Assembly: GCA_031425695.1 (NCBI GenBank)
Contig: JANPJV010000116.1
Coordinates: 120-64,119 of the forward strand
Reading direction: 5' to 3'
From: Rhodanobacteraceae bacterium
GTDB taxonomy: Bacteria > Pseudomonadota > Gammaproteobacteria > Xanthomonadales > SZUA-5
Length of the DNA stretch: 64,000 nt
The notes beneath the pieces were generated by a model. It made no database searches, was not told where the DNA came from, and worked only from the letters and a program-made list of their open reading frames with translations. Positions 3,988 through 59,200 of this stretch are shown one piece after another. Every line of letters begins with the position of its first letter. The stretch's first letter is position 1. The translations under genes and the position numbers were made by a program.

Positions 3988-4575
3988 ATGCGCAATTTTT
4001 TGACCCGCCTGATCCCCGGCATCGTACTGGCTGCCGCGCTGCCGTGCGCCAGCGCAGCTGGCATAGTCGTCGTGAATGGCACCGAGCTCGATCCGGCGCA
4101 GGCGGAAACGCACGCCAGCCAGCTCGGCCATCGGATTCCCGACGGGCGCTACTGGTATGACCGCATGACGGGCGCCTGGGGCCGCGAGGGCCAGGGTACG
4201 GCTGGCTTCACGGTGGTCGGCCTGGACCTCGGCGGACCGCTGCGGGCTGACGCCTCGCATGGGCGCACTGGCGTCTACGTCAACGGTCGCCAACTGGCTC
4301 AGAGCGACGTCGCCGCGTTCGTGGGCATGGGTATCCCGGTCTATCCCGGTCGCTACTGGGTCGATGCCTTCGGCAACGGCGGCCTCGAGGGCGGCCCGGT
4401 CAGTTTCAATCTGCGCGTGCTGGCGCAGCAGGCGGCGGCTGCCGGGCGCGACTCGATCTACACGAAGTCCGGCAGCGGCGACAATGAAAGCTCGACCTTC
4501 ATCGGCAGCGACGGCTCGCTTTCCCACAGTACAACCATCAACGGCAAGACCACCGATTACTACATTGGCGATTGA
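3988..4575 (+). CDS. secreted hypothetical protein
   Basis: ATG with GGAGG 9 nt upstream. Signal peptide MRNFLTRLIPGIVLAAALPCASAAG. No family recognised. Confidence 0.65.
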   Translation: MRNFLTRLIPGIVLAAALPCASAAGIVVVNGTELDPAQAETHASQLGHRIPDGRYWYDRMTGAWGREGQGTAGFTVVGLDLGGPLRADASHGRTGVYVNGRQLAQSDVAAFVGMGIPVYPGRYWVDAFGNGGLEGGPVSFNLRVLAQQAAAAGRDSIYTKSGSGDNESSTFIGSDGSLSHSTTINGKTTDYYIGD

Positions 4576-4652: not shown

Positions 4653-5782
4653 CGACTTGCGGCGCCGCGGCTGTTCCTGGCCGGGTCGTTGCAAGCCGTT
4701 GCCTCACTCGGCATTTCGAAATGGAAGCTGTCAGAGGGCAGTTCCGTGGTCCACGGCTCGGGACTGGCGATCATCTCGAGCACTCCGGCATCGTTGCTGC
4801 TGGCGGCCAGGTTGAGATAGGCATTGGCCAGCCTGGGATCGAACGGCAGGCCGCTTATCGGTGACTCGTGGGCCCGGGCGAGCCAGACCAGCAAGGGTGC
4901 CATGCGCAGCCAGTCGATCGGAGCCGGGCGCGCATCGGCGAGCAGCCGCTCCGACCGCTCGATGCGCCGGCGCCATTGCGCACTTCCGGCGGGCGGTGCG
5001 TTGGCGAAATCGAGCGAGCGCAGCAGGATTTCGGCGAGGATCACCTTGGCCGTGGCCGAAGGCGGCTCGCCACGGCCTTCAGCCAGGCGCAGGGCTGCCA
5101 GTCGCTGCGCAGCGCCCAGTGCATTCGACGCATCGTCGTACGCGTCACCACCATCGGCCAACCGTTTTTCCCATTCCGAGTCGGGCTCCGGGGCCGGCCG
5201 GACATCGGTAAAGCAGCTGGCGGCAAAGTCATCGTCATCGACGTCTAGAAGCATGCCCACCTGCATCGACAGCGCATGACTGTCCGCACTGCGAGCGAGC
5301 ACGTGGTTCTCCCAAAAGCTCCACCGCCAGGCGCCATTCTGGCGAGCGAAGCCCAATCCTACCCCCAGGTATTCGCCGCCAGCGGTCAGGAACGGCACCC
5401 AGGCAGCATCGCGCACCACCACCGGGTCCGCTGCACGCATCCGCGGCAGCGCCGAGCGCATTCCCGCCGTCTGCTCGGCCGTGCACGCCGCCGCATAGAC
5501 ATCGGACATCTCGAAGCGACTGGCACTGCGCAAGACCGCGACCGCAGCCATTTCGGTGGTTGCCAGCGCCGACCAGAAATCCGGCTCGTGCATCGCCATC
5601 GCGCGCAGCTCAGCCAGCGAACCCAGCGCCGCCTGGTCGAGAACTTCAGCCGGATCTGTCAGTCGGCATTCGATCAATGCGATCCGCACCGCCTCGACCT
5701 GCTGAAAGCTCGGCGCGCCGGGTGCCGCTGCCGCGGCCACTCCCGACAGCCCCCACAGGACCGCGATCGCAACGCGCTTCAT
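4649..5782 (-). CDS. secreted hypothetical protein
   Basis: Signal peptide MKRVAIAVLWGLSGVAAAAAP. Its ATG overlaps the stop of the upstream gene (ATGA), suggesting an operon with 5779..6195. Confidence 0.7.
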   Translation of the reverse strand: MKRVAIAVLWGLSGVAAAAAPGAPSFQQVEAVRIALIECRLTDPAEVLDQAALGSLAELRAMAMHEPDFWSALATTEMAAVAVLRSASRFEMSDVYAAACTAEQTAGMRSALPRMRAADPVVVRDAAWVPFLTAGGEYLGVGLGFARQNGAWRWSFWENHVLARSADSHALSMQVGMLLDVDDDDFAASCFTDVRPAPEPDSEWEKRLADGGDAYDDASNALGAAQRLAALRLAEGRGEPPSATAKVILAEILLRSLDFANAPPAGSAQWRRRIERSERLLADARPAPIDWLRMAPLLVWLARAHESPISGLPFDPRLANAYLNLAASSNDAGVLEMIASPEPWTTELPSDSFHFEMPSEATACNDPARNSRGAASR

Positions 5783-35451: not shown

Positions 35452-35610
35452 ATGCACCCGAACGACAAGGCACCACAGGACCCGCCGATTCCGTCGATCA
35501 AGATCGAAGACCTGCCGGTCGAAAGCGGCAAGGACGCAGACGTCAAGGGCGGCCCCGCCTACATGAAACTCGGCGACATCAAGGCCGAAGTCGCTCCGAA
35601 CCGACCCTGA
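35452..35610 (+). CDS. putative double-glycine-leader peptide P3 (52 aa)
   Basis: GAGGAG 8 nt upstream of the ATG and a strong terminator hairpin immediately downstream. MHPNDKAPQDPPIPSIKIEDLPVESGKDADVKGG / PAYMKLGDIKAEVAPNRP has the same architecture as the two small ORFs at the C39-ABC locus. Confidence 0.5.
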   Translation: MHPNDKAPQDPPIPSIKIEDLPVESGKDADVKGGPAYMKLGDIKAEVAPNRP

Positions 35611-39540: not shown

Positions 39541-40713
39541 TCAGCGAAAATTGCGCTCGCGCAGGGCGCGCATCGGCTCCAATGCGAGCTCGAGCAGGGT
39601 GCGGCGTCCGGTCAGGACGCGCGCCTCGCCGGTCATGCCGATGCGCAACGGCATCTGTGGACCGCTGCCGATCGGCAGCGCTGCCAGTGCGAAGAATTCC
39701 GGCGCGGTGCGGCCGCGTTCCGGGGTCGGGCTGATGAAGGTCAGTTGCGTGCGCACCGAGCCGTGGCGCTGATAGGGATAGGCGGCCAGCAGCAGCCGCA
39801 CTTCCTGCCCCGTCCGCACGCGCGGCACGTCCGGCTCCGGCAGCACCAGGCGCACCTGCGCCGCGGCATTTTCGCGCGCCAGCTGACACAGCTCGGCCCC
39901 AAGCGCGATCACGCTGCCTGGTGTCTGTTCGGTCAGGCTCACGACGACCGCATCGTATGGCGCACGGATCGATTCGAGGTCGCCCTGGCTTTCGCGCAAT
40001 TGGGCGCGCAATGCGCCGCTCTGCACGCCCAGCTTGTCGACCAACAGCGCCTCTTCGCTGCGCTCGCGTGAACGCTGGTCGATTCGTTCCTGGCGTTGGC
40101 GCCGCAGTTGCTGTAGCTGCTGTTGGGCGAGTACGCGGGCGCTCTCGGATTCTGCGACGACCAGCTGGTCCGCGAGCAACGTGAGCTGGGGCAAAAGCCC
40201 ATCGGCCACGGCCTTTTCCTTGCGCGCGACGATCGCTCGCGTGGCGGCATGGTGCTGATCGCGAAAGTCGAGCTCGCGCCGCGCCAGCAGCAGCTGCGCA
40301 TCGTATCCCGCGAGCTCGGACCGATGCGCGAGGTCACGCTGCACGGTCTGTTCGGTGAGTGCGTGCTGGTCCTGGCCGACCTGCTGCAGACGTGCATCGG
40401 CGTCGCGCACGCTGTCACTGCGAATCGCGAACAGCTCGTCGCCAGCCTTGACCAATTGCCCCGCGCGCACTCGGACGCTCGCGAGCTGTCCGCCCACGCT
40501 CGCCTGAACCGGCGCGGCGCCATCCACCGGCTCGATGACGAATGGCGCGACCACCGTTTCCGGCAGCTGGAAACCGACCGCGAACAGAGCCGCCGCGAGC
40601 GCCAGCGAAATCAGCAACCAGCCCGTCCAGCGCGCGACCTTTGCCGGCGGGTCGACAGGCAACAGGCCGGAAGGTTGGTCGAAGGAGCGGTCGGGCAGCG
40701 CTGGCGCGCTCAT
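39541..40713 (-). CDS. HlyD-family membrane fusion / secretion protein
   Basis: N-terminal TM (WLLISLALAAALFAV), biotinyl-lipoyl-like hairpin (G.L..V.V..GQ.VKAGD.LF.I), long coiled coil, C-terminal beta-barrel (..PLRIGMTGEARV). Confidence 0.9.
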   Translation of the reverse strand: MSAPALPDRSFDQPSGLLPVDPPAKVARWTGWLLISLALAAALFAVGFQLPETVVAPFVIEPVDGAAPVQASVGGQLASVRVRAGQLVKAGDELFAIRSDSVRDADARLQQVGQDQHALTEQTVQRDLAHRSELAGYDAQLLLARRELDFRDQHHAATRAIVARKEKAVADGLLPQLTLLADQLVVAESESARVLAQQQLQQLRRQRQERIDQRSRERSEEALLVDKLGVQSGALRAQLRESQGDLESIRAPYDAVVVSLTEQTPGSVIALGAELCQLARENAAAQVRLVLPEPDVPRVRTGQEVRLLLAAYPYQRHGSVRTQLTFISPTPERGRTAPEFFALAALPIGSGPQMPLRIGMTGEARVLTGRRTLLELALEPMRALRERNFR

Positions 40714-40735
40714 GAGTGGAGTCCCCTTTGAGCGT

Positions 40736-43875
<3,140 letters not shown>

Positions 43876-43879
<4 letters not shown>

Positions 43880-44076
43880 ATCGAGTCGTCGAGCGTCTGC
43901 GATTCGTTGTGATTGAGGCGCGCGCTGCCGCCCCAGCCGCTGTCCGAAAGCGGTCCGCCCTTGATCTCGTCGCCGGCTTCGACAGCCAGGTCCGCAAGCG
44001 CCGGCTCAGCTTCGAGCGGAGCTACGGACGACGATGTGTCGGTCGCGGGCGTAGGGTCGGGACTCGAGTTGATCAT
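43876..44076 (-). CDS. putative double-glycine-leader peptide P1 (66 aa)
   Basis: GGAG about 10 nt upstream. MINSSPDPTPATDTSSSVAPLEAEPALADLAVEAGDEIKGG / PLSDSGWGGSARLNHNESQTLDDSM. Its TGA overlaps the GTG of the C39-ABC gene (GTGA). Confidence 0.6.
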
Positions 44077-44159
44077 TTGCTGCTTGCTCCAGTGAGGTGA
44101 CGAGGCGAATGCAATGGACCCATGCACTCGAAGTACGCACCTCCGCTGTCCCACAGATC

Positions 44160-44591
44160 ACGCCTCGTCAGATTATTTTTCGGCAGCCGGCACGCTCTAG
44201 CTTTGCCAGATTCGCCCGACAGGTGAGAAGGCGCGGATGGTCCGCCGGCAACGCCTGCTCAAAGATGCGCAGCGCACGCTCCTACAGCTGGGCAGCCTCG
44301 ATGAAATCCCCCTGACGCTTGCGCAACAACCCGAGATTGGTGAGGGTCAGGGCTGTACTTGCCCAGCACGGCGCGGTTGTTGAGCAGCGGCACGAGTGCT
44401 GGAGAATCCGCGCCGAACAACTGTTCCGCGAGCGCCAGCGCCTGCTCGAACGCCGACCGCGACTGCGGGTACTGGCCTAGATCGCACAGCCGATTGGCAA
44501 GCTCGTGGAGTTCCTGCAGACGAGCAAGCTCGGTGGCAGCCGGTCGCGATATGTCCCCGCGTAAGCTCAATCCAGCCCAGCCAGCATCCAA
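44160..44591 (-). pseudogene. TPR-repeat gene remnant (frameshift plus in-frame stop)
   Basis: One frame reads ..ANRLCDLGQYPQSRSAFEQALALAEQLFGADSPALVPLLNNRAVLGKY. The TPR-like sequence continues in another frame as ALTLTNLGLLRKRQGDFIEAAQL-stop-ERALRIFEQALPADHPRLLTCRANLAKL. Confidence 0.55.
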
Positions 44592-45571
44592 TGAACATGC
44601 CGAGTCAGCAAGGCGCCCACTAGCTGTTCCACCAGCACATCTTCGAGCCTGGCCGCGAGGAAGGGATCGGCGAGGTTGGGTTCGATCAAGCGCGTGAACC
44701 CCAGCAGCAACTGACGCTCACCGTCGACTATGACCTCAGTGACCATGCCGGGCCGGATCTGGAACAACGCCTGGCGCCACGATCCGGGCAGATCGGACAC
44801 CCACCAGCGTTCAGTGCGATGCGCAAAGCCGCCAAGGGCGGCAATCTCAAGAAGGCTCTGCCCGTCCTCGATCACGCAGTGACGCGCCTCGCGCGCCGCA
44901 TCGAGGCGATCGAACTCGACGACTTCACCTTCGATCCGCAGCCACTGGCGCCGGTCCTGCGCGAGGAGGCGCTCGCGGGCGTCGTTGGTGATCGTTTCGG
45001 AGAGATGGGCAGAGAAGCCGGCGTCGAGCGCGTCCCAGCACTGCAGCGCCGGACCATCCACGCACGCTCGTACCTCAGCGGCCGCCGCCACTCGAGCTGC
45101 GAACGCTCTTGCGACCAGCCGGAAGTCGTCCGAAAGAATGATATCAATCTCAGCGTTGGCTACAGAAGCCGCGCCGCTGTCCAGCAGGCGTCGTCGCATG
45201 CCCGCACGCAGATCGGCGAAGCTGAGTGCGCGCGCAGAAAGCCAGGCCAGGCAATCCTGCGCGCTTACCAGGCCATGCGCGTAGCGAAAGGCCTGGACAG
45301 CCGCATCGACGGCTGACTCGTCGACTGGTGCGCTCGTTGGTTGTCGTGCACTCGGAGCGGATCCAACGTCGTCGCCCAGCACCAGTGGCGCGACGGCGCG
45401 AACATCGGCAACGGTCCAGACCCGCTGCGCTGCTGTGAATACGGGCAGTTGCAGTCGAGGGTGGGACTCCGCTTCCGCGGAACTGGCGTCTTTGCGCATT
45501 GCAAGGCCCATGCAAACTCCGGCAATTGTGCCCGCGATCGCCATCAGTGATATTTGGCCTTCGCGCGCCAC
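44567..45571 (-). CDS. accessory protein of the peptide locus; possibly a degenerate PpiC/rotamase-like peptide-maturation protein (start uncertain)
   Basis: Sits 18 nt downstream of P2. ..AVQAFRYAHGLVSAQDCLAWLSARALSFADL.. and C-terminal ..LLEIAALGGFAHRTERWWVSDLP..ALFQIRPGMVTEVI... resemble parvulin-type accessory proteins by eye only. Confidence 0.6.
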   Translation of the reverse strand: MAREGQISLMAIAGTIAGVCMGLAMRKDASSAEAESHPRLQLPVFTAAQRVWTVADVRAVAPLVLGDDVGSAPSARQPTSAPVDESAVDAAVQAFRYAHGLVSAQDCLAWLSARALSFADLRAGMRRRLLDSGAASVANAEIDIILSDDFRLVARAFAARVAAAAEVRACVDGPALQCWDALDAGFSAHLSETITNDARERLLAQDRRQWLRIEGEVVEFDRLDAAREARHCVIEDGQSLLEIAALGGFAHRTERWWVSDLPGSWRQALFQIRPGMVTEVIVDGERQLLLGFTRLIEPNLADPFLAARLEDVLVEQLVGALLTRHVHWMLAGLD

Positions 45572-45589
45572 CGCGCGCGAGCAGTGGAA

Positions 45590-45745
45590 TCAGGCAATTC
45601 CGAGCTGCTTGAGATTGTTGGAGCGGCTCCTGCCACCGATGACGTCCTGTTCGGGTTCCAGATCAGTGCCGTCGATCTGATTGGGAACCGGTTGCGAGGC
45701 GTCGTCACCGCTGGTCGGTGGGTTTGAATTGTGAGTAGTGTCCAT
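45590..45745 (-). CDS. putative double-glycine-leader peptide P2 (51 aa)
   Basis: GAGGA 6 nt upstream of the ATG. MDTTHNSNPPTSGDDASQPVPNQIDGTDLEPEQDVIGG / RSRSNNLKQLGIA. Confidence 0.55.
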   Translation of the reverse strand: MDTTHNSNPPTSGDDASQPVPNQIDGTDLEPEQDVIGGRSRSNNLKQLGIA

Positions 45746-45943: not shown

Positions 45944-48900
45944 ATGCGGCGCATCTCCCTGCTTCACCGGATTTGTCTGCTGGGTGGCCTGCTGCTGGCG
46001 AGCACTGGCGCCTTTGGCCGGACCATGGTGGTTCGCCATTTCAGCAGCACCGAAGGTCTGCCGGTCGCCAGCGCGAGCGCTGCGCGCGTCGACGCGGATG
46101 GTTTCCTCTGGGTGGCGACTCACGACGGCCTGGCGCGTTTCGATGGTCGCGAGTTCACCGTCTACGACGCCGCCAGCAACCCGGACATGTCGAGCAACCG
46201 CATGAACGGGCTGCACGCGGATTCCGCGCGGGCGCTATATGCGGTGTCCCTGCGTGGCGAGCTGCTGGCGGTGCGTTCTTCCGGCATCAAGCGCCTTCGC
46301 CCGGATGCCAGCGACCCTGAATCGCCCATCCATTACCTGGAGCCTGAGAGCCTTTGCCTGACACTGAACCGGGGCCGGTTCTGTCCAAACGGCAGCGGCG
46401 GGTTCTCGCTGCGGAAACAGTTTGCGGAGCCCGGACGCGTCAAACTCGCGCTCTCGGCGGGCGCTGATGCAGTTTGGGAAATCGTCCCATTCCAGGGCGT
46501 CTACCTGGATGCCATCGGCGGTCGAAGCCTGGTGCACGCGGATCCGGGCCTGGTGCTGCAGCCGAGCCTGGGCGAGACGGCGATCGCCGTCGCAACCGAT
46601 GACGGAGAATTGCTGCTCGCTACTGAGAACGGACTGCTCCGGGTAACCGCCGACGGCGGCCGTTATCTTGAAACCGCCGACAAGCAGCTCGTCGTGCTGC
46701 AGCTGCGCGCCGAACCAAAGGGCGGGCTCTGGGTGGGCGCCGATGATGGCCTGTATCAGTTGCACGCTGGCGAACTCAAGCGCGTGGAGGCGACGGCGCG
46801 GTCGCTCGCCAGCTCACGCAGCTGGCGCGGACCGGACGGCGCGCTGTGGCGCTCCACCGATGGCGAACTCTACCGCGAGGCGACCCTGCAGCTTTCCAGT
46901 CGCGGGCAGATTCGCGACCTCTACTTTGACCGCGACGGCAGCGTATGGGTCAGCACGCTGCGCGACGGCATCTACGCCTTGCACGAGGCACGCGTCGATC
47001 TGCTCAACGCTGATTCCGCGATGGTCAGCGACAACACCTACTCAGTCTCCCGAGCCACCGACGGCAGCATGTGGCTGGGCAGCCTCGGCGGCGGCATCCA
47101 GCGTGTAGATGGCGCCGGCACGGTTCGAAACTATGGACTGGAGGCCGGGCTGCCGGGGCTCAATCCGTGGGTCGTGGCGGTTGCGCCGGACGCCAGCGTG
47201 TACGCCGCGACCTTTGCGCCGGGTCTCTATCGCAAGGCGGCGGACAGCGAAAATTTTTCACCGGTTGCGTTGCCTCCGGCGCTCCAGGAGCGCCAGATCT
47301 TTGCGCTCAGCTTTGCCCCGGATGAAAAGCTCTGGCTCGGCAGCGCCGACGGCGCATGGCTTCGAGAGGGCGACGGCTGGCAACGGATCTGGCCCGAGGG
47401 CCGCAGCGAACGGGTTCACGCCGTGCTGCATGGGGATGCTGGCGGGGTGCACCTGGCAAGCGGCGACGGGCTGTGGCGGATCGACCACGCTGGTGCGCAC
47501 GCAGTCGCAAGCTCATTGGTGGCCGGTGTGCCCGTGCGCGGCCTGGCCCGTGACAGCCAGGGCACGCTTTGGGGCAGCACGGAAGGTCGCGGGCTGGTCC
47601 GCATCGCCGCCGACGATGTCGAAGGCAGCAAGGCGGTCCTGATCGGCCGTCCCGCCGGGCTGCCCTCGAACAGTCCGCATGCCGTGGTTGAAGATGCGAC
47701 CGGCAGTCTCTGGGTGAACAGCAACCAGGGCATCTTCCGTCTGACGCGCGCCGGCATTGCCGATTACCTGGAGGGTCGCAGCCGCGTCATTTCGCCGCTG
47801 ACGCTGGGCCTGGCCGATGGCTTGTCGGAGCTCGAGGGTAATGGCGGCGTTCAACCCGCTGCGGCAGTGGACTCCGCCGGGCGCATCTGGTTTCCATCGC
47901 AGCGCGGCATCGTCCGCATCGACACTGCGCGCTTGCCGCTGCGTCGCCAGCCACCGCGCGCCGTGATCGACGGGATCGACAGCCAGGGCTCGCCGGTGAC
48001 GCTGGCCGAGCACGGACTGCCGCTCGGGGTGCGCTCGGTCCAGGTGCGCTACAACGCGGCTGACCTGCACGCCGGCGCGGAAGTGCGCTTTCGGTACCGC
48101 TTGTACCCAGTCGACCAGAACTGGACTGACGCCGGCACCCGGCGTGTGGCCGCTTTCGCGGCGCTGGCGCCCGACCGCTACCGGTTCGAGGTCATTGCCG
48201 GCAACAGCGATGGATTCTGGTCAGCCGCGCCGGTGGTCCTCGAATTCCTGGTGCCAGCCCATTGGCACGAATCGAGGGAGTTTCGCTGGTCCCTGGGTCT
48301 GGGGGTGTTGCTGCTATCGATCGCATTGGCGCAGTGGCGCGTGCATCGACTGCGCCAGCGCGCAGTAGCCCTCGACGCCCAGGTGGATCTGCGCACGCGC
48401 GAGCTCAGCACCGAGAAGGAGCGCGTCGAATCGACCTTGGCCAGCCTGGCCACCGCACATTCCGATCTCGCCCTCACCCACGGTGAAATCGAGCTGCGCA
48501 ATCGCAAGCTTGCCGAGCAGACGGCGCGACTCGAGAGCCTGGATCGATTCCGTACCCGACTGCTGGCAGATGTCAGCCACGAGTTGCGCACGCCATTGAT
48601 GCTGATCAAGTTGCCGCTGCGTGAGCTCGTCGAGGGCGCGAAGAAACTCGCCGCAACGGATCGGCAGCGCCTGCAGTTGCCCTTGCAGCAGACCGAGCGC
48701 TTGAGCCATCTGGTCGAACAGTTGGTGGGACTGGTGCAGGCCGAAGCCGGGCAGTTGCGGCTCAAGGTCCGGCGCATCGACCTCATCGGGTGGGCCCGTG
48801 GACTGATTGCCGCGTTCGAGCCGATCGCCGAGCGCCACGGAGTACAGCTGGAGTTGCACACCGGGTTGGACAGCCTGGCGGCCTATGTCGACGCCGATCA

Positions 48901-49957
48901 CCTCGCGACGATCTTGGGCAATTTCCTGGACAACGCCCTGAAATACGCCCCAGGCGCTTCGATCGTCCGCGTGAGCATCGAGACCAATGCGCCGGGCGAT
49001 TGGGCGCACGTCAGCGTTGCCGACCGCGGACCCGGCTATCCACCGGAACTTGCCGACTCGCTATTCGACCGCTTTTTTCGTGCCGAGGGGCCGCCGCGTG
49101 CGGGTCGCGAAGGCTTGGGGATCGGCCTGGCGCTCGCCCGCGAATTGGTCGAACTGCACGGCGGGCGCATCGGCACTTCGGTCAGCCCGGCCGAGGGCAC
49201 CGTGTTCTGGTTGGATCTTCCGCTCGGCAGCGCCCATATCGCACTCGACGAGGTAGCACTGGAAGGCGCGGGCGAAGGCTTGCTGCCGATCGCGCAGGCC
49301 GGTGATGGCGGCATCCTGCTGGTCGAAGACCATCCGGAATTGGCGGCGTATTTGACCGAACGGCTGGCCGAATTCTTCCCTGTCCGCACCGTCGCGAGTG
49401 CCGAATTGGCCGTGCCGGAAATGCAGCGCGGCGATATTCGATTACTGGTCAGCGACGTCAAGCTTCCCGGGATGGACGGCGTCGAGCTCTGTCGCACACT
49501 GAAAGCGATGCCGGCTTTCAAGGCATTGCCGGTGATATTGATTTCGGCAAAATCCACGCTGATGGATCGCGATGCGGGGATCGCGGCAGGAGCAGTGACC
49601 TGGATTACCAAACCATTTGAACTTTCCACGCTGATTGCAGAAATTCGCCATTTCTGGCCCGACAGCGGTCGCCCCAGTCGCCCAGCCGGCATTCCCAATC
49701 AAACTCGCAGCCAATCTCCAAGACCCGATCCTGCAGGTCGTGCGTACTCGCATGGCGGATCCGGAATTCGGGGTGGCCGAATGGTCCGCTGCGGCGCATC
49801 TGTCCGACCGGCAATTGCGCCGCAGGGTGACCGAACTCACCGGTCTTTCGCCGATTGTCTGGTTGCGCGAGCAGCGTTTGGAGAAGGTCCGGGAATTGAT
49901 CAGCAACGGTGCCTGCCAGACGATCGCCGAGGCCGGCCGTCAATGCGGCTTCGATAA
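45944..49957 (+). CDS. hybrid sensor histidine kinase/response regulator with two-component-regulator-propeller + Y_Y_Y sensor (HTCS-like). The last ~100 codons of the drawn ORF are probably out of frame.
   Basis: Signal/TM, repeated propeller blades (..LWVAT.DGL.RFDG..), Y_Y_Y (VRFRYRLYPVDQNW..YRFEV), TM, H-box LLADVSHELRTPL, HATPase (DRGPGYP..GLGIGLALARELVELHGG), receiver (LLVEDHPEL..LLVSDVKLPGMDG..ISAK..ITKPF). Confidence 0.85.
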   Translation: MRRISLLHRICLLGGLLLASTGAFGRTMVVRHFSSTEGLPVASASAARVDADGFLWVATHDGLARFDGREFTVYDAASNPDMSSNRMNGLHADSARALYAVSLRGELLAVRSSGIKRLRPDASDPESPIHYLEPESLCLTLNRGRFCPNGSGGFSLRKQFAEPGRVKLALSAGADAVWEIVPFQGVYLDAIGGRSLVHADPGLVLQPSLGETAIAVATDDGELLLATENGLLRVTADGGRYLETADKQLVVLQLRAEPKGGLWVGADDGLYQLHAGELKRVEATARSLASSRSWRGPDGALWRSTDGELYREATLQLSSRGQIRDLYFDRDGSVWVSTLRDGIYALHEARVDLLNADSAMVSDNTYSVSRATDGSMWLGSLGGGIQRVDGAGTVRNYGLEAGLPGLNPWVVAVAPDASVYAATFAPGLYRKAADSENFSPVALPPALQERQIFALSFAPDEKLWLGSADGAWLREGDGWQRIWPEGRSERVHAVLHGDAGGVHLASGDGLWRIDHAGAHAVASSLVAGVPVRGLARDSQGTLWGSTEGRGLVRIAADDVEGSKAVLIGRPAGLPSNSPHAVVEDATGSLWVNSNQGIFRLTRAGIADYLEGRSRVISPLTLGLADGLSELEGNGGVQPAAAVDSAGRIWFPSQRGIVRIDTARLPLRRQPPRAVIDGIDSQGSPVTLAEHGLPLGVRSVQVRYNAADLHAGAEVRFRYRLYPVDQNWTDAGTRRVAAFAALAPDRYRFEVIAGNSDGFWSAAPVVLEFLVPAHWHESREFRWSLGLGVLLLSIALAQWRVHRLRQRAVALDAQVDLRTRELSTEKERVESTLASLATAHSDLALTHGEIELRNRKLAEQTARLESLDRFRTRLLADVSHELRTPLMLIKLPLRELVEGAKKLAATDRQRLQLPLQQTERLSHLVEQLVGLVQAEAGQLRLKVRRIDLIGWARGLIAAFEPIAERHGVQLELHTGLDSLAAYVDADHLATILGNFLDNALKYAPGASIVRVSIETNAPGDWAHVSVADRGPGYPPELADSLFDRFFRAEGPPRAGREGLGIGLALARELVELHGGRIGTSVSPAEGTVFWLDLPLGSAHIALDEVALEGAGEGLLPIAQAGDGGILLVEDHPELAAYLTERLAEFFPVRTVASAELAVPEMQRGDIRLLVSDVKLPGMDGVELCRTLKAMPAFKALPVILISAKSTLMDRDAGIAAGAVTWITKPFELSTLIAEIRHFWPDSGRPSRPAGIPNQTRSQSPRPDPAGRAYSHGGSGIRGGRMVRCGASVRPAIAPQGDRTHRSFADCLVARAAFGEGPGIDQQRCLPDDRRGRPSMRLR

Positions 49958-50006
49958 TCCAAGCTACCTTTACCGGCTGTATCGCGCCCAGTTCGGAGAA
50001 GGCTGA
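49635..50006 (+). CDS. AraC/XylS-type HTH domain ORF, probably the frameshifted output domain of the preceding hybrid sensor
   Basis: ..ADPEFGVAEWSAAAHLSDRQLRRRVTELTGLSPIVWLREQRLEKVRELI.....TIAEAGRQCGFDNPSYLYRLYRAQFG. The frame opens right after a TGA at 49632, and only a TTG start is available. Confidence 0.7.
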   Translation: MQKFAISGPTAVAPVAQPAFPIKLAANLQDPILQVVRTRMADPEFGVAEWSAAAHLSDRQLRRRVTELTGLSPIVWLREQRLEKVRELISNGACQTIAEAGRQCGFDNPSYLYRLYRAQFGEG

Positions 50007-50241
50007 GCGCGCACCTGTCGGTATCGACAGCTTGCTGCACCCGCTTCCCTGGCCGTGGCGCGCCAGCGCCCAGAGCCTACGCCCGGGCGTGACCAAGGGA
50101 CGATACGTCACGAAGTCCGAATCGTGCCACTCGACGGCCGATTCCTGTCTGTGCGCGATGACCGCGTGTCTGCATGCTGGATTGGCCTCGCACCCTCGCG
50201 GGTCCGGGCGCTGCTCCCCACGCACGCAAAGGTCGACCGCC

Positions 50242-53200
50242 ATGACGAACGCACGCTCGCCGCACCCCTTTCAAACGTCGTTGCTTGCAAAACTGCGACG
50301 AATAGGAATGGTCATGGCGATGTTGCTGGCGGCCTTGCCATTGTCAGCCCAGGTCGTCTCCACCCTTGCCGACAACGTTTCGTCCCCACCGGCCGGCAGC
50401 TTGCGCGCGGCACTCAACACGGCCAACACCGCTGGAAGTGCGGCGACGGTGACCTTCAACGTCCCCGGCGGCGGCACCATCAATCTCGCCGGCGCACTGC
50501 CGGTCCTTCGCAATCCGAACGGAATCAGTGTCGACGGTGCCAACGGCGGCCAAGGCGCCATCGTGATCGACGGCGGCTCGTCCTCGGCCACCACCGGCGA
50601 CCGCATCTTCTTCCTCGGTGTACGCGGCAGCGACAGCACCGGATTGACCGCCACCCCTGGCGCCAACTGGACCATTTCCAACTTGACCCTGCAGGACGGC
50701 AATGCGCGCGGCGGCGCCGGCGGCAATGGCGGTTCCCCCGGCGACCCCTATTCCGGCGGTGGCGGCGGCGCTGGCCTGGGCGGCGCTCTGTTCGTCAACG
50801 AGGGCAACGCCACCTTGAGCAACGTCGTGTTCGCGAATAACCGCGCGACGGGTGGCAACGGTGGCACCCTGTCCGGCCCGACCGGGTCCACCGGTGCCGG
50901 CGGCGGCATGGGCGGCAATGGCGGCAGCGCCGCCGCCTTCAGCGGTGGCGGCGGCGGTGGTTTTGGCCTGGGTGCAAAAGGCGGCAATGGCAATGATCCG
51001 ACGGCGGGCGCGGGCAGCCTCGGCCGTTGGACCGGCGGCAGCAGCGCCGGCGCGGGCGCGGGCGCGGGTGGCGGCGCGGGCGCCGCCAGCGGAGGCGGCG
51101 GCGGCGGCTCTTCAAACAACCAGAGCGCTGGCGGCGGCGGTCCCGGAGCGGCAGCCGGCACTACCACGGGCGCGCCCGGCGGCCAGGGCAAGGGCGGCGA
51201 CGGCGGCTTCGGCGGCGGCGGCGGCGCCGGTGGTGGCAATAACCTGCAGGTGGGCGGAATCGGCGGTTATGGCGCCGGCGGCGGTGGTGCCGGTGCCGGC
51301 GATGGCGGCAACGGCGGCTTCGGCGGCGGCGGCGGCGGTGGCGCGGGTTCCCCCATTGGTACCGGCGGCTTCGGCGGCGGCAACGGCGCGAGCGGCTACC
51401 AGGGCGGTGGCGGCGGCGCTGGCCTCGGCGGCGCGGTGTTCGTGCGTCAGGGTGCGACGCTGGCGATCAGCGGTAGCAACATCGCCGGCGGCGCCGTCGC
51501 GGGCGGCAGCGCGGGTCCGAGCGCGGGCGCCGGCTCGGGCATAGGCACCGCGGCCTTCCTCGCCGGTTCGCTCAACTGGAGCGTGGCCACCGGCCAGACC
51601 GTGACCCTCGCTCCTGGCCAGACCCTTGGCGGTGGTACCAACGCGCTGATCAGTGGCGGCCTGACCAAAACCGGTCCCGGCACGCTGCAGCTGAATAGCG
51701 ACAACAGTTACGTCGGGCCGACTGCGGTGTCGGCCGGCCAGTTGCAGGTCAACGGCAGCCTGCTCGGCAGCGGTGCGATCAGCGTGGCCAGTGCCGCCAC
51801 GCTGGCCGGCACCGGCACGCTGACGGGCGCCACCAGCGTGTCCAGCGGCGGCACCCTGGCACCCGGCCAGGGCGCGCCCGGTCGCCTGAACTCGGCTAAC
51901 CTGGCGTTGGTCGCCGGCGCGACCTTCGCCGCCGAAATCACCGGAGCGACCGTCGCCACCCAGTACGACCAGCTCGATGTCACCGGCACCATCAACCTGG
52001 GCGGCGCGACGCTGACGCTGTCCGGCGCGCACGTGGCGAGCACCGGGCAGAGCTTCGTGCTGATCGACAACGACGGCAGCGACGCGGTGACCGGCACCTT
52101 TGCCGGCCTGGCGCAGGGCAGCACGATCCTGCTTAATGGTGTCAGCTTGTCGATCAGCTACAACGGCGGGGATGGCAACGACGTCGTGCTGACGGCAGCG
52201 GTCGATCCGTGCTCGTCTTACGCATTCCCCTACACGCTGGCAGGTGCCGACAACACCGCACTGGTAGCTAACCTCCGCCAGGCGGTCCAGTGCGCGAACG
52301 CCAACGGCGCGGGTGCGGACACGATCCTCCTGAGCGGCCAAACTGTCGCCCTGCCCGCGTCCGCGCCGTTTGCTGACTATTCCGGGCAGACCGGACTTCC
52401 GCAAATTACGTCCACCATCAATATTCGCAACGGCACGCTGTTGCATGACTTGAGCATGGGCGGTTTCCTGTTCCGCACGTTCTCCATCGCCGCAGCCGGC
52501 ACCTTGAATCTGCAGAACATGGAATTGTCGGGCGCCTCGGCGCCGTCGCCTGGCGGTGCCTTCCACAACTCGGGCACGGTGAACGTGACCAACAGCACCA
52601 TCCACGGGTATGACACCAACAATCGTGCCGGTGTCTTGCACAACGCCAGTGGTGCCACGGCGACCATCACCAATGCCGTGCTTTACGACAATAACGCCGT
52701 CAATGCGCACGCCATCGACAATTTCGGCTTGGTCACCATCGTCAACTCAACCTTCGACAAGCACACGTCGATCAGTAATTTTGGCGCCATTCTGGAAGGC
52801 ACCGGCTACATCGTTCGCAACAGCATCCTCTGGAATCCCGGCAGCGGACCGACGCAGATATCGTCTGGAAATACGGTCAGCGACAGCATCGTGAAAGGCG
52901 GCTATGGCAGCGGGACCAATATCCTGAATACCAGCCCGCTGTTTGTGAACGAAGGCGCCAATGACTACCGTATTGGGTTATCCAGTCCTGCCTTGAATGT
53001 GGGTGTGAACAGCTATGTGCCACTCGATAGCACCGATGTCGATGGCGACAGCAACACCAGCGAAAGCCGACCAGACCGTGATCTCAATCCACGCATCGTC
53101 GCGACAACAGTCGATATGGGTGCGTACGAACGTCAGGACGCAGTTGCTGCCGACTTCACCGTCACCACCACTTCGACGAGCATCTCGGTCACCGACAGCA

Positions 53201-56200
53201 CCAGCAACGGCAGCACGTTGGCAGCCAGCGAGCCGGTTGCCAACACCCTGCGCTTCGACGCCGCGGGCCGCACGTTCAGCGTCAATGGCGGGCCGCTCAT
53301 CAACGGCAACTCTGGCGATCTAGCGCTGGCCGGGATCACCAGCCTCACAGTCACGGCCGCCGGCGGCGTGTCTGCGGCTTCCGGCGCCGTCTTCAACATC
53401 GGCGCCACCAGCTTCAACGCCACCGCACCGGTGATGCTGACCGGCGGCACGCTGAAATCCACCGGCACCGCCACGGTCAATCCGGCCATCGTGATGACGG
53501 CGAACAGCGATCTGGCGGCAACTGGCGGCGTGATGACGCTGGCCGGCGCCATCAGCGGCGATTTCACGCTGCGCACCTTCGCTGCTGGCACCTATCGATT
53601 CGCCAGCACGGCCAGCACCTTTGCGCGGCTGCAACTGGCTTCGGGCACGGCGGCCCTGGCTGGCAACAACACCCTGCCGCCGGCGATCGACATCTTCAAT
53701 TCGGCCAGTTTCAACCTGAATGGCTTCAGTCAAACGATCGATTTCTACGCCAGCAGCGGCACCACCCAGAACACCGGCGCCGCGGCCAGCCTGACCCTCG
53801 GCGTGGCCGGCAGTTCGTCCAGCTTCGGCAGTCCGAATTACGCTGGACCAATCAGCGGACCGATCAACCTGACCATTGCAACAGCCGGCGGCCAGACGCT
53901 GAGTAGCAACAGCAGCAATTTCACCGGCACCATCGACATATTCGCGACGCTTGCCGTCACCGGCGTGAATGCGCTTGGAGCCGTCGGCGCGGGCAACACC
54001 ACGACGGTTGCGGCGACGGGCGTTCTCGACCTGCGCAACGTTGCCTACGCGGGACTCGAGGCGATCACCGTGAATGGCGGCACGCTGCGCGTCAGCACCG
54101 GCGTCAGCAGCCTTCCCGGCACTGTCACCTTGAATACCAGCACCGCCACCATCCAGGTCACCAATGTCGGCAGCGAATTGAACCTCAATGGCGTGGTGAG
54201 CGGCACTCAAGGTTTCAGCAAGACGGGCAACGGGATTCTGTACTTGAGCCAGTCCAACAACTACGTGGGTCCCGTCGTCATCAACGGCGGCAGTGTGCTG
54301 GTCACTGGCTCTACGCTTGCGGCCAGCACGGTCAGTGTAGCGAGCGGTGGCACGCTGGGTGGTACGGGCACCGTCAATGGCGCCGTTTCGGTGGCATCCG
54401 GCGGCACGTTGGCACCTGGCGTCACAGTCGGCACGCTGCACTCCGCAAACGTGACACTGAGCTCCGGCGCCACGTTTGCGGTCGGCATCACCGGCGCGAC
54501 GGTCGACACCCAGTACGACCAGCTCGACGCCAACGGCACGGTGAACCTCGGCGGCGCCACACTCGCGTTGTCCGGCGCCTTCGTGCCGACGACCGGCCAG
54601 AGCTTCATGCTGATCGACAACGACGGCAGCGACGCGGTGACGGGCACCTTTGCCGGGCTGTCGCAAGGCAGCATCGTGAACTTCAACGGTGTCACGCTGG
54701 CCGTCAGTTACACCGGCGGCACCGGCAACGACGTCGTGCTGACCGCGGTGGTCATCCTGCCAACCACCACCGTGGTCTCGCTGAACCGCGCCAGCGGCAA
54801 TCCGCGCAACACGCCTAGCGTCACCTGGACCATCACCTTCGCGAATCCAGTCGACGGCTTGACGCCTGCCAACTTTGCGGTGGTACCGACCGGGCTCGGC
54901 GGTACACCCACCGTGACAGGCGTCAGCGAAGCGAGCGGTCCACCCGCCACTCAGTGGAACGTCACCGCCAGCACCGGCACCGGCAGCGGCACGCTGGGCT
55001 TGAACCTGGTCAACGACAGCGGTCTCACGCACGACGTGACCAACCTGCCGTTTACGGGTCAAGTTTTCAACATTGACCGCGCGCCGCCAACGGTGACCAT
55101 CACGGTGGCGGACACCAGCTTGACCGCCGGCGAGACTTCACCGGTGAGCTTCGTGTTCAGCGAAGCCGTCAACCAGGTTCCCCCGGCTAACCTGACCGTC
55201 GCGAACGGCACCCTTTCTTCGCTTACGACCTCCAACAACATCACCTGGACGTCGACACTCACCCCGACTGCGGGGATCTCCGATCCGACCAATGTGATCA
55301 CGCTGGATACCAGCGGTTCCAGTGATCCGGCTGGCAATCCCGGCGTCGGCATCGCGACGTCGAACAACTATGCGATAGATACTTCACTCCCGATCCTTAC
55401 CGTCGGCGATTTTTCACGGACGGAAGGCTTCAATGGTGTTTCCGCCTTCGACGTGACGGTCAGCCTGTCGGCACCCGCGCTGGCGGGTGGAGTGAGCTTC
55501 GATATCGCAACGGCGGATGGCACCGCCACAGCCGGAAGCGACTACAGCGCCCGCAACTTCACCACGCAGACAATTCCCGAGGGCAGCTCCAACTATGTCC
55601 TCTCGGTTCCGGTTTTCGGCGACGCTGTGCAGGAATTGGACGAGACGCTCCTGGTCAACGTGAGCAATGTCAGCGGCGCCACGATCGGCGACGGCCAGGG
55701 TCAGGTCACGATCGTCAACGATGACACCGCCGGCATCGGCGTCACACCGGCGAGCGGGCTGGTGACCACCGAAGCCGGTGGCACGGCGACGTTTACCGTC
55801 GTGCTGGCCAGCCAACCGACCGCCAATGTGACCGTTGGCCTGGCCAGCTCGGATCTCACCGAAGGTACCGTCGCACCTGCCAGCGTGGTCTTTACGTCCG
55901 CCAACTGGAACGTCGCGCAGACCGTCACCGTGACCGGCGTCGATGACCTGATCGTCGATGGCACTGTCGCCTACACGATCACCACCGCGCCGGCGACGAG
56001 CTCGGACAGCAACTACAACGGCATCGATCCAGCCAATGTCAGCGTCAGCAATAGCGACAACGACGCCGCGGGGATCACCGTCAGCCCCACGGCCGGCCTG
56101 GTCACCACCGAAGCCGGTGGCACGGCAACGTTTACGGTCGTGCTGGCCAGCCAGCCTGCCGCCAACGTGGGCATCGGATTGTCGAGCTCCGACACCACCG

Positions 56201-59200
56201 AAGGCACGGTTGCGCCAGCGAGTCTGGTCTTCACCCCGGCCAACTGGAGCACTGCGCAATCGGTCACGGTCACAGGCGTCGACGACGCCCTGGTCGACGG
56301 CACCATCGCCTACTCGATCGTCACCGCCGCCGCGACCAGCAGCGATTCCAACTACAACGGCTTGAACGCGAGCGATGTCGGCGTCAGCAACAGCGACAAC
56401 GACAGCGCGGCCGTTACGGTGATCCAGTCGAGCGGCAATACCGCCGTGACGGAAGGCGGCAGCACCGACAGCTTCACCGTGGCCTTGAGCAGCCAGCCGG
56501 CCAGCAATGTCACCATTGCATTAACCGGAACCCAGGTAACCACTGGACCAACCAGCCTCACCTTCACGACCGTCAATTGGGCAACGGCGCAAACGGTCAC
56601 GGTGACCGCGATCGACGATGCCGTCGACGAAGCCACGCCGCACGCCGGCTCGGTGACCTTCGTGGTAACCAGCAGCGATGGCAATTACAACGGCGCCACC
56701 GTCGCCCCGGTCAGCGTCGCGATCACCGATAACGACGCATCCGGCATCACCGTCGCGCCGACCACTGGCCTCATCACCACCGAGGCCGGTGGCACCGCCA
56801 GCTTCACCGTCGTGCTGGGCAGCCAGCCGACCGGCAACGTCACCATCGGCTTGTCGAGCTCCGACACCACCGAAGGCACGGTTGCGCCAGCGAGCCTGGT
56901 CTTCACCCCGGCCAACTGGAGCACTGCGCAATCGGTGACGGTCACAGGCGTCGACGACGCCCTGGTCGACGGCACCATCGCCTACTCGATCGTCACCGCC
57001 GCCGCGACCAGCAGCGATTCCAACTACAACGGCTTGAATGCAAGCGATGTCGGCGTCAGCAACAACGACAACGACAGCGCGGCCGTCACGGTGATCCAGT
57101 CGAGCGGCAATACCGCCGTGACGGAAGGCGGCAGCACCGACAGCTTCACCGTGGCCTTGAGCAGCCAGCCAACCAGCAACGTGACCGTGCTGTTCAGCAC
57201 CAGCGGGCAGCTCGACGCCAGCCCGGGCAGCGTCGTGTTCACCACCCTCAATTGGAACGTGGCGCAATCGGTAACCGTGACGGCGACGGACGACAACCTC
57301 GTCGAGGGTGCCACCGTCGAATCGATTGGTGCCTCGGTGAGCAGCAGCGATCCGAGCTACAACAACATTGCGGTTGCAGCCGTGAGCGTGGCGGTGACCG
57401 ACAACGACGCCGCCGTGGTCAGCTTCGCGCCAGCCAGCGTCAGCCAGCTCGAGGCGACCAGCCCGATGGCGTTCACGGTGACCTTGAGCAAGCCGGTTGC
57501 ATCGGGCGTCACGCTGAGCTTGAACAGCGCCTTCGGAACCGCGCTCGCGAGCGACTTCACGCCCATCGTGGGCGCAACGGTCAGCTTTCCGGCCAGCAGC
57601 ACGGCAGCGCAGACGGTGAACGTCGTGATCACCAACGACGCCATCGACGAGAGCGACGAGCAGTTCAGCCTGACGCTGTCGAATCTCGTCGCAACTGGCA
57701 ATGTGTCGCTGGGGACCGCCATCGCCGGCGGCACCATCCTCGACGATGACGCCATTCCGACCCTGGCGATCAACAGCCTCAGCCAGCCAGAAGGCAACGC
57801 CGGCACCACGACCATGACTTTCACAGCAAGCTTGTCGGCGGCATCGGGCCAGGATGTGACTTTCATGCGGGCTACCGCAGACGGTACGGCGACGGTCGCC
57901 AACAACGACTATGTCGCGCTGGCCCCCGCACTGCTGACGATTCCGGCCGGTCAACTGAGCCTTAGCATTCCGGTTACGATCAACGGCGACGGCGTTTTCG
58001 AAGGCAACGAAAGCTTCAACCTCAACCTGACCTCCGTCACCAACGCCAGCCCCGGCAGCCTCACCGGCACCGGCACGCTCGAAGACGACGACCAGCAGCC
58101 GACGACGACCACGATCACCGATACGCCGGACCCGAGCGTGGTCGGCCAGCCGTTTATAGTGAGCGTGACCGTTGCCGCCCAGACCACCTCCCCGGTCGGA
58201 ACGTTGACGATCGGCGATGGCAGTGCCAGTTGCGGACCGCTCACGCTGACTCCGGCGGCGGCTCCGAACAGCACCGCGAGTTGTGCGCTGATCAGCACCA
58301 GCGCGGGCCCACGTACGTTGACGGCTGTCTACACGCCGGCAAGCCAGAGCTTTGCGGCCAGTACCGGCACAGCCACACATCAGGTTAATCCGGCCAACAC
58401 CTCGATCAGCGTGGCCGGACCTGCGCGCGTCCGCGTCAACCAAACAGGCAGCTTCACTTTCGCATTGAGTGTCGATGCGCCCGGCGCAGGATCACCAGCC
58501 GGCACGGTCACGCTGAGCCACGGTGCGAGCAGTTGCCAAGTGACGGTACCAACCGCCATGCCGAGCTGCACCCTGCCCTTCTCGACGCTGGGTCCTCGCA
58601 CGATCGCGGCCGCGTTTGCACCCAGCGACGGGTCTTTCAACGCCTCGAACTCGAGCGGCGCTGGCAATGCACGGACCGTGGTCTATGCACTGAGCGATAT
58701 CGAGGTGGAAAAGTCGGATGCTCAGAGCGTGGTCTCGCCCGCCGACCTGCTGGTGTACACCGTCAGCGTACGCAACCTCGGCCCGGATGCGGCTGTGAAT
58801 ATCCGCGTGCTGGACCGTGTGCCGGTCGGGCTCGGTAATGTTGTCTGGTCGTGCTTCGGCAACGGCGGTGTCAGTTGTCCGCAGGCGAATGGGACTGGCG
58901 ACCTGGACCTCACGGTCGCGAACTTCGCGGTTGGCGCGACGCTCAACATTTCCTACCAAGGCAATGTCGTTGGCGATCCCGCGCAGATCGTCAACACCGC
59001 GCAGGTCGAGCTGCCCAATGACACATCCGTCGAGGACCCCAACCTAAGCAACAACAGCGACACGGATGTGAATATCAAGGACAACCTGTTCCGCGATGGC
59101 TTCGAGGGTCCGCAGGTCGATGCGCCGTCAGGATCGTTCCAGCTGCCGGCCAGCAACCTGCGCAGCGCACTCGACCGCGTCGCCGTAGTGGCTTATCGGC

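Follow-up and report, generated by a model that had tools for sequence, protein, structure and literature searches.

A double-glycine peptide gene beside a cNMP-domain PCAT exporter in a Rhodanobacteraceae bacterium and its apparently undescribed, partly tandem-repeated peptide family

Introduction

Is the 66-codon open reading frame (ORF) P1, located directly upstream of the gene for a peptidase-containing ABC transporter (PCAT) in the genome of a Rhodanobacteraceae bacterium, a real gene, and does it encode the peptide that this transporter processes and exports? The question was addressed for a stretch of 64,000 nucleotides (hereafter referred to as the window), for which an earlier note, made from the sequence alone, had interpreted P1 as a double-glycine (GG) peptide translationally coupled to its cognate exporter. 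The window has a G+C content of 65% and is rich in spurious ORFs; an open frame by itself is no proof of P1.

Based on comparative analyses, P1 is a real small gene under purifying selection and represents a double-glycine peptide with a PCAT exporter. It belongs to an apparently undescribed and partly tandem-repeated peptide family, referred to as GG...NHNE in the following. The first reading of P1 was partly supported: its main point holds, and a number of its details have to be corrected.

Results

P1 encodes a peptide under purifying selection

Translation of the minus strand yielded exactly the 66-residue peptide quoted in the earlier note, and the Shine-Dalgarno-like GGAG postulated about 10 nt upstream was found (positions of all features are given in Table 1). 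The G+C content of P1 by codon position (0.64/0.55/0.79) resembles that of real genes of the window. A protein search covering 5.8 billion sequences returned the identical protein, annotated by NCBI, and one homolog, namely P0002 (108 aa), encoded on the metagenome contig L002. Exact-sequence look-ups with the P1 and exporter sequences of the window returned no record. Contig L002 is syntenic to the window; the ORF and its GG motif are kept in the ortholog, and the ribosome-binding site and the ATGTGA junction to the exporter gene are identical in kind. Moreover, a stop codon immediately precedes the equivalent ATG in L002 (the stop-to-stop frame opens at 4285, the ATG lies at 4288), which fixes the start of P1.

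P0002 consists of the P1 unit twice, arranged in tandem. Comparison of P1 with unit a of L002 resulted in a synonymous divergence (dS) of 0.70 and a non-synonymous divergence (dN) of 0.17, corresponding to a ratio (omega) of 0.24. Among the changes, 21 of 39 affect third codon positions (p=0.007), and the contrast between synonymous and non-synonymous sites is supported by Fisher's test (p=1e-4). Between the two L002 units, synonymous sites are saturated (dS ~1.5), omega amounts to 0.13, and the pattern GGP.xSxGWGGSTRLNHN is retained. The omega values of 0.24 and 0.13 therefore indicate purifying selection on the peptide, especially on its core. The BLAST segments of L002 overlap at window positions 43904..43964, which suggests that either a deletion between two repeats gave rise to P1 or a duplication gave rise to the L002 gene; single-unit P1 was probably made by the deletion.

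Within the P1 leader, the hydrophobic residues reported previously were recovered (Ile at -4 and Leu at both -12 and -15 relative to the GG motif). Position -10 is also hydrophobic, and the family features V at -10 where -7 lacks a hydrophobic residue. The leader length of 41 aa, which had been considered unusual, is ordinary within the GG...NHNE family. The C-terminal 25 residues (2674.8 Da) lack Cys, contain WGGS and, as predicted, are acidic (four acidic residues, one basic residue and one His; pI 4.2). Length and acidity of this core were thus confirmed, whereas it is better parsed as a 13-aa Gly-rich segment followed by the invariant NHNE and a short tail. WGGS had also been proposed as an alternative cleavage site; it lies within the conserved core GGS(T/A)RLNHNE and no leader-like context precedes it, and judging from these sequences a second cleavage there is unlikely.

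The GG...NHNE family consists mostly of tandem polyproteins

A profile search was conducted with a hidden Markov model built from P1 and the two L002 units (HMMER, 1.84 billion representatives) and recovered a family of homologs. In total, 39 proteins matched at E<=1e-3 and 12 at E<=1e-10; E-values reach 1e-56, with 4e-36 for P1 itself. One match, P0130 (1762 aa), was rejected as a false positive representing a repeat protein without NHNE. Most relatives of P1 are tandem polyproteins of 2-6 units, and 15 proteins are single-unit members. A unit is composed of an acidic spacer, the leader-like sequence 'L.DLPV..DEQVKGG', a Gly-rich core with a median length of 12 aa (e.g., PGGYGSGGVLI, GWGYGESTVKL, PGSGWCTQCGGIYS and PWGSDGMGGSTRL) and NHNE. 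Some cores carry CxxC. In an alignment of 43 units, D-L, N-H-N and the initial Gly of Gly-Gly are invariant, with near-invariance of the second Gly and of the NHNE Glu; every family-invariant residue is retained in P1 (D29, L30, G40, G41, N55-E58). Among 100 units, NHNE occurs in 92, followed by T (73%) or S (8%), and NHNEP and NHNQ variants were also observed.

The internal leader repeats of P0154 exceed the cut-offs of four curated double-glycine-leader models, namely TIGR01847 (25.0 vs 15.7), NF038153 (30.4 vs 22), PF10439 (29.9 vs 27.1) and PF03047 (23.7 vs 20.4), and because of these matches the internal repeats are regarded as bona fide GG leaders. The NHNE unit is covered by no Pfam or NCBIfam model, and literature searches on the NHNE motif, on cNMP combined with C39 and on tandem-repeat GG precursors found no description of the family. 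A scan of JGI metagenomes with the alignment of P1 and the L002 units yielded no relative, and a degenerate DNA pattern for GGSxRLNHNE detected 10 loci, two of which are real (L090, L097).

Furthermore, P0156 and five tandem genes of locus L087 encode P1-like cores (PWGSEGTGGSTRLNHNE, PWGSEGTGGSTRLNHNET) fused to a leader of verrucomicrobial type (KVKDLKPKKDPKGG). The tie between P1 and verrucomicrobial leaders is made through such intermediates, i.e., P0156, the L087 peptides and the likeness between the leaders of P1 and of the peptide encoded at 35452..35610.

NHNE precursors recur beside exporters with cNMP-binding domains

The exporter encoded downstream of P1 features, in this order, two cNMP-binding domains (PF00027), a Peptidase_C39 domain (PF03412, E 4.4e-38), ABC_membrane and ABC_tran. 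Within the exporter alignment, the C39 catalytic residues Q339, C345 and H418 are invariant, and D434 is nearly so. Assignment to the NHLP/Nif11 export systems was also checked: the exporter reached 523 bits with TIGR03796, below the cut-off of 853, and P1 showed no NHLP or Nif11 match.

NHNE precursors were found beside the cassette of this cNMP-C39 exporter, which also encodes a SurA-like protein and an HlyD adaptor, in five contexts, comprising the window, L002, L010 (an Opitutus metagenome-assembled genome, MAG), L097 and L098/L099; in the latter, the exporter gene and an orf334-like gene adjoin a four-unit precursor (GC 0.56). Based on this recurrent adjacency and the leader features, P1 is called a putative substrate of the exporter. 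The proposal of the earlier note that P1 represents the cognate substrate remains the best reading, given the GG-type leader, the same-strand upstream position, the complete C39 domain, the HlyD-family adaptor and the recurrence of the arrangement. It is considered likely that the C39 domain cuts P1 after Gly41 and that the 25-aa product is exported, as the sequence features of both partners predict.

Regarding the junction of the two genes, the TGA stop of P1 overlaps the GTG (ATGTGA) that opens the 1047-codon exporter frame, as had been described. In locus L101, the junction reads ATC TGA, and a TGA closes the exporter frame before a GTG at 'VNSRFEEVL'. The exporter frame of L003 opens no earlier than 'VNPRFEDTL', and the exporter match of L097 begins at query residue 21, overlapping the stop of a TPR gene. 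Considering these starts, the conserved exporter start is GTG 43819..43817, located 57 nt past the P1 stop, and this codon is probably the true start. The 20 extra exporter codons differ between window and L002 mostly at third positions, and a start at the overlapping GTG is possible. The overlap stands for the window and L002; strict stop/start coupling is not supported. Co-transcription of P1 and the exporter gene is very likely.

Most relatives of the exporter belong to Verrucomicrobiota

An alignment of the N-terminal half of the exporter retrieved 80 loci from species-representative genomes. The closest relatives originate from an uncultured Xanthomonas MAG (79% amino acid identity) and a Lysobacterales MAG (67%). 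Nearly all remaining ones, 77 of 78, belong to Verrucomicrobiota, mostly Chthoniobacterales/Udaeobacter, with identities of 51-64%; the other one is a Thermoanaerobaculia MAG. Because the two gammaproteobacterial MAGs are followed almost exclusively by Verrucomicrobiota, this distribution suggests that the cassette (39541..45745) was exchanged between the phyla, i.e., between Verrucomicrobiota and Xanthomonadales-like bacteria. Judged by these matches, the window derives from a Xanthomonadales-like organism.

Among the 80 loci, 76 have a homolog of orf334 as the immediate upstream neighbor of the exporter gene. The orf334 protein has no Pfam assignment at standard thresholds; the profile of its family matches the parvulin and C-terminal part of the chaperone SurA weakly and consistently (E 3.8e-5). 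Small ORFs with the leader consensus 'IKVRDLKPKKDAKGG' and short hydrophilic cores were present in the fetched flanks of 58 loci out of the 80, mostly in tandem and just past the HlyD gene. Their leaders resemble those of two further peptides of the window, encoded at 35452..35610 (plus strand) and 45590..45745 (minus strand). In loci L013-L082, about 5.4-6.2 kb past the exporter start, two to four tandem small genes with the leader ...DLKPxKDAKGG were observed, featuring cores that are either low-complexity repeats (GGSSLDKGGSSLDK..., GASRQGASRQ..., HGVAGAGVAG...) or the conserved RQLLFGATDxxQ.

A TPR partner gene is broken in the window

A gene for a TPR protein of ~270-300 aa adjoins NHNE precursors in eight contexts (L002, L010, L083-86, L087, L097, L100, L101 and L102), with varying gene order. 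Five intact TPR partners matched solely TPR-type repeat models (TPR_12, TPR_10 and others); among these five, no output domain such as HTH or phosphatase was found, and the sequences show no signal peptide. Among solved structures, the peptide-binding TPR domains of kinesin light chain are the best matches (E 6.5e-32).

In the window, only a remnant of this gene was detected upstream of P1. It carries a 456-bp internal deletion that is absent from L002 and L102, a frame change, and a TAG in place of TAC; residues ~5-64 and 225-268 survive in different frames. The earlier note had missed both this broken partner gene and the membership of P1 in a multi-unit family. Locus L102, which shares 83% identity with the window across the genes for the sensor kinase and orf334, possesses an intact TPR gene preceded by a three-unit precursor, and has a multi-unit precursor at the position of P1. 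Regarding NHNE units, the window has one, L002 and L101 have two each, and L102 has at least five distributed over two genes. Among close relatives, the module is thus at its most reduced in the window.

Further features of the locus

The region between the TPR remnant and P1 is conserved relative to L002 above the level of synonymous sites. It contains a 9-10 bp stem (GACGAGGCG/CGCCUCGUC), the outer pairs of which differ compensatorily in L002 (UUUC/GAAA), three sequences being available for this comparison. A check for structured RNAs or riboswitches gave no Rfam match and a non-significant fold z-score (-0.52), and no sigma-70-like promoter was found near P1. The region may be a promoter/operator or a stem-bearing element.

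Besides P1, the window encodes a second and a third GG-leader peptide (Table 1). For the third one (35452..35610), the leader of the L002 copy gives a match to the NHNE-unit profile (E 0.0012). The gene of the window has its own GGAG and a hairpin with a T-run past its stop; katG and an esterase gene lie between it and the exporter, which is 8 kb away. A likeness of its core to the N-terminus of Hcp was not supported by Pfam. Copies of the second type were observed at 45590..45745 (minus) in the window, in L102 (5874..6029) and L002 (1909..2076), and further in L004 (~4950..5094), L008 (5773..5979) and L009 (4546..4857). Their cores (LLLPAVQKVREAAAR..., ...CQNNLKQLGIA) mirror positions 1-22 of Pfam DUF1559 (SBP_bac_10), which represents the conserved N-terminal region found in pseudopilin-like proteins from Planctomycetes and Verrucomicrobia. 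The two core types in concatenation scored 32.8 bits with DUF1559 (E 1e-7) and the L102 peptide alone E 0.039; these peptides may be mimics or fragments of DUF1559 proteins. The idea that NHNE imitates the LHNYHD following the DUF1559 N-terminus was rejected, with the natural tail adding 5.6 bits and shuffled tails scoring 32.3-39.6 bits.

A hybrid sensor kinase of ~1340 aa is encoded at 45944..49957 (plus), divergently from the peptide/exporter operon. The same arrangement occurs in L102 (1604..5677), where the kinase comprises Reg_prop, HisKA, HATPase_c, Response_reg and HTH_18 domains. This kinase could regulate the locus. A 3163-aa ORF at 49909..59400 (plus) adjoins the kinase gene.

Table 1. 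Positions, strands and supporting evidence for features of the P1 locus in the window.
Feature	Position	Strand	Evidence
P1 precursor gene, 66 aa	43876..44076 (incl. stop codon)	minus	translation; ortholog P0002 in L002; dN/dS; profile search
P1 leader, residues 1-41, ending ...LADLAVEAGDEIKGG	43954..44076	minus	family alignments; D29 and L30 family-invariant
P1 Gly40-Gly41, predicted cleavage motif	43954..43959	minus	family alignments
P1 predicted exported part, residues 42-66: PLSDSGWGGSARL + NHNE + SQTLDDSM	43879..43953	minus	
P1 NHNE motif, N55-E58	43903..43914	minus	core and NHNE kept in all three copies (window and L002)
GGAG, Shine-Dalgarno-like, 10 nt before P1 ATG	44087..44090	minus	kept in L002
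Intergenic region, TPR remnant to P1	44077..44167	minus	alignment with L002
TPR-protein pseudogene remnant	44168..44591	minus	tblastn fragments in two frames; deletion vs L002 and L102; residual TPR_10/TPR_12 match
orf334, SurA/parvulin-like	44567..45571	minus	synteny; SurA 1m5y E 3.8e-5; Rotamase_2 in 4/8 members
Exporter: two cNMP-binding domains, C39, ABC membrane, ATPase	40736..43879 (probable true start GTG 43819..43817)	minus	Pfam
HlyD-family periplasmic adaptor of exporter	39541..40713	minus	Pfam, NCBIfam; exact copy on Logan contig
Second GG-leader peptide, 51 aa, leader ...TDLEPEQDVIGG, core RSRSNNLKQLGIA	45590..45745	minus	best window match of verrucomicrobial-leader profile, E 0.044; ortholog in L102
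Third GG-leader peptide, 52 aa, leader ...IEDLPVESGKDADVKGG, core PAYMKLGDIKAEVAPNRP	35452..35610	plus	P1-like leader; ortholog in L002

Discussion

Proposed route of P1 and comparison with known systems

For P1, the following route is proposed. The 66-aa precursor would be synthesized in the cytoplasm, and its leader (DLxVExG..IKGG) would be recognized by the C39 domain of the neighboring exporter and cut after Gly41. The acidic product PLSDSGWGGSARLNHNESQTLDDSM would then be pumped out via the exporter, its HlyD adaptor and a channel in the outer membrane encoded at an unlinked site. By analogy to HetC of Nostoc, the two N-terminal cNMP domains probably act as a gate that couples export to a nucleotide signal inside the cell. 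The upstream SurA-like protein may hold substrates, and the TPR protein of relatives probably binds the precursor or peptide via the invariant NHNE/acidic segment, its gene being inactivated here. Since the core is small, hydrophilic, Gly-rich and conserved across phyla, and since a partner with a peptide-binding fold recurs, a partner-dependent role such as signaling or that of a chaperoned ligand looks more likely than killing.

P1 shares characteristics with GG-leader substrates of PCATs (colicin V/CvaB, ComC/ComA, PCAT1-CtA): its leader ends in Gly-Gly with hydrophobic residues at -4, -12 and -15, and its gene adjoins an exporter with a C39 Cys/His peptidase and an HlyD-type adaptor. Unlike these substrates, its leader carries DLxV at -13..-10, lacks a hydrophobic residue at -7 and is missed by curated models. 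Moreover, NHNE follows every core of the family, most relatives form tandem polyproteins in which GG leaders also occur internally, the exporter bears two cNMP domains, and a TPR partner gene belongs to the family. Also unlike these substrates, the cores are tiny, Gly-rich, acidic and conserved across phyla rather than diversified.

Tandem precursors are known from the yeast alpha-factor, a tandem-repeat pheromone polyprotein, and from cyanobactins with their multi-core precursors of peptides that are made by ribosomes and modified after translation (RiPPs). Similarly, members of the GG...NHNE family bear 2-6 copies of spacer, cleavage signal and short peptide; unlike in those systems, cleavage is signaled by a double-glycine leader of bacterial type, modifying enzymes were not seen, and P1 has a single unit. 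Pairs of peptides and TPR receptors are represented by the RRNPP systems of Firmicutes, and the TPR fold of kinesin light chain binds short acidic linear motifs. As in RRNPP pairs, a small peptide gene adjoins a gene for a cytoplasmic TPR protein, whereas the TPR protein of the present family lacks HTH or phosphatase output, the hosts are Gram-negative, and export would proceed via a PCAT instead of Sec. In addition, the TPR gene of the window is dead, and the TPR-peptide interaction is putative.

The closest exporter for comparison is HetC of Nostoc PCC 7120, a PCAT with one cNMP domain, which binds ppGpp and is needed for function (PMC10986499). No substrate of HetC is known and no GG peptide gene is located nearby (PMC10986499). 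Both exporters share the overall layout of N-terminal cNMP, C39 and ABC parts, and a regulatory rather than toxic role of the cargo is presumed for both. Differences comprise the second cNMP domain and the candidate substrates encoded beside the exporter described here.

Observations weighing against export of P1, and alternative explanations

Several observations speak against P1 as exporter substrate. Position -7 of the leader is a non-hydrophobic Gly, so that the classical pattern -4/-7/-12/-15 is incomplete. None of the curated GG-leader models (TIGR01847, PF10439, PF03047, NF038153) matched P1 at E<=0.01, and a profile built from verrucomicrobial leaders did not detect it. The uncertainty of the exporter start also has to be considered. 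In L003, which is the closest exporter locus of Xanthomonas-like type, the TPR gene and the exporter gene have no peptide gene between them. L083-86 and L087 encode NHNE peptides and a TPR gene with no exporter within the available sequence. Finally, the locus may be decaying, as indicated by the TPR pseudogene and the lowest number of units.

The last point leads to the explanation that P1 is an intact relic, non-working in this organism after loss of the TPR partner and collapse of the repeats to one unit. The window-specific deletion and the in-frame TAG in the TPR gene, the unit numbers of the relatives and the overlapping BLAST segments, which suggest a deletion between repeats, are in line with it. 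On the other hand, the P1 ORF, its ribosome-binding site and all family-invariant residues are intact, as are the exporter, adaptor and SurA-like genes, and single-unit members are frequent elsewhere (15 proteins). Overall, the relic explanation appears unlikely, although it ranks first among the alternatives.

Somewhat less likely still is P1 as a RiPP precursor in which NHNE (often N-E-T/S) would be recognized, glycosylated or processed by an enzyme whose gene lies elsewhere, with the TPR or SurA-like protein as scaffold. The motif is invariant after each core, T or S follows in 81% of the units, some family cores contain CxxC, and the multi-core layout is reminiscent of multi-core RiPP precursors. 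Nevertheless, examination of nine or more contexts revealed no recognizable modifying enzyme that recurs, and no glycosyltransferase recurring nearby was found that would fit the N-glycosylation sequon. Furthermore, the NHNEP and NHNQ variants break the sequon, and the P1 core is devoid of Cys.

The exporter-free loci L083-86 and L087, together with the missing signal peptide of the TPR protein, could also be explained by an intracellular ligand or antagonist of the TPR protein that is never exported, with an incidental exporter gene next to it. This is very improbable considering the GG-leader features, the internal leader repeats passing bacteriocin-leader models and the adjacency to exporter cassettes recurring in five contexts. 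Moreover, the L087 peptides share their leader with the cargo peptides that cluster around exporters of Verrucomicrobiota. The stop/GTG overlap and the plentiful spurious ORFs of high-GC genomes might suggest that P1 is an ORF arisen by chance or an upstream ORF with the sole role of regulating exporter translation; this is effectively refuted by purifying selection at the protein level, the old tandem duplication with preserved core (omega 0.13), the occurrence of the family in distant lineages and the loss of the overlap in L101.

Implications of the GG...NHNE family

P1 as a double-glycine peptide processed by its neighboring PCAT thus remains the favored interpretation. Beyond P1 itself, a wider idea can be advanced, tentatively and with considerable doubt: GG...NHNE peptides may be the released ligands of a peptide system of Gram-negative soil bacteria, in which a second-messenger-gated exporter would cut tandem polyproteins at their internal double-glycine sites and a TPR protein resembling kinesin light chain would recognize the peptides, or the precursors, via the NHNE/acidic motif. 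The family combines an invariant NHNE with a tandem-repeat precursor layout that is unusual among bacterial double-glycine peptides, the recurrent TPR partner could be the binding protein of the family, and the distribution points to exchange of the cassette as a whole between Verrucomicrobiota and Xanthomonadales-like bacteria. C39 exporters with cNMP domains are widespread, with 545 confirmed stretches encoding a relative in one scan of species-representative genomes. HetC is the sole studied example among them and has no substrate assigned, and the loci described here offer directly testable candidates. If the idea is true, HetC-like cNMP-PCAT exporters would gain, with the GG...NHNE peptides, their first concrete class of substrates, and the system would represent a bacterial counterpart of eukaryotic prohormone processing.

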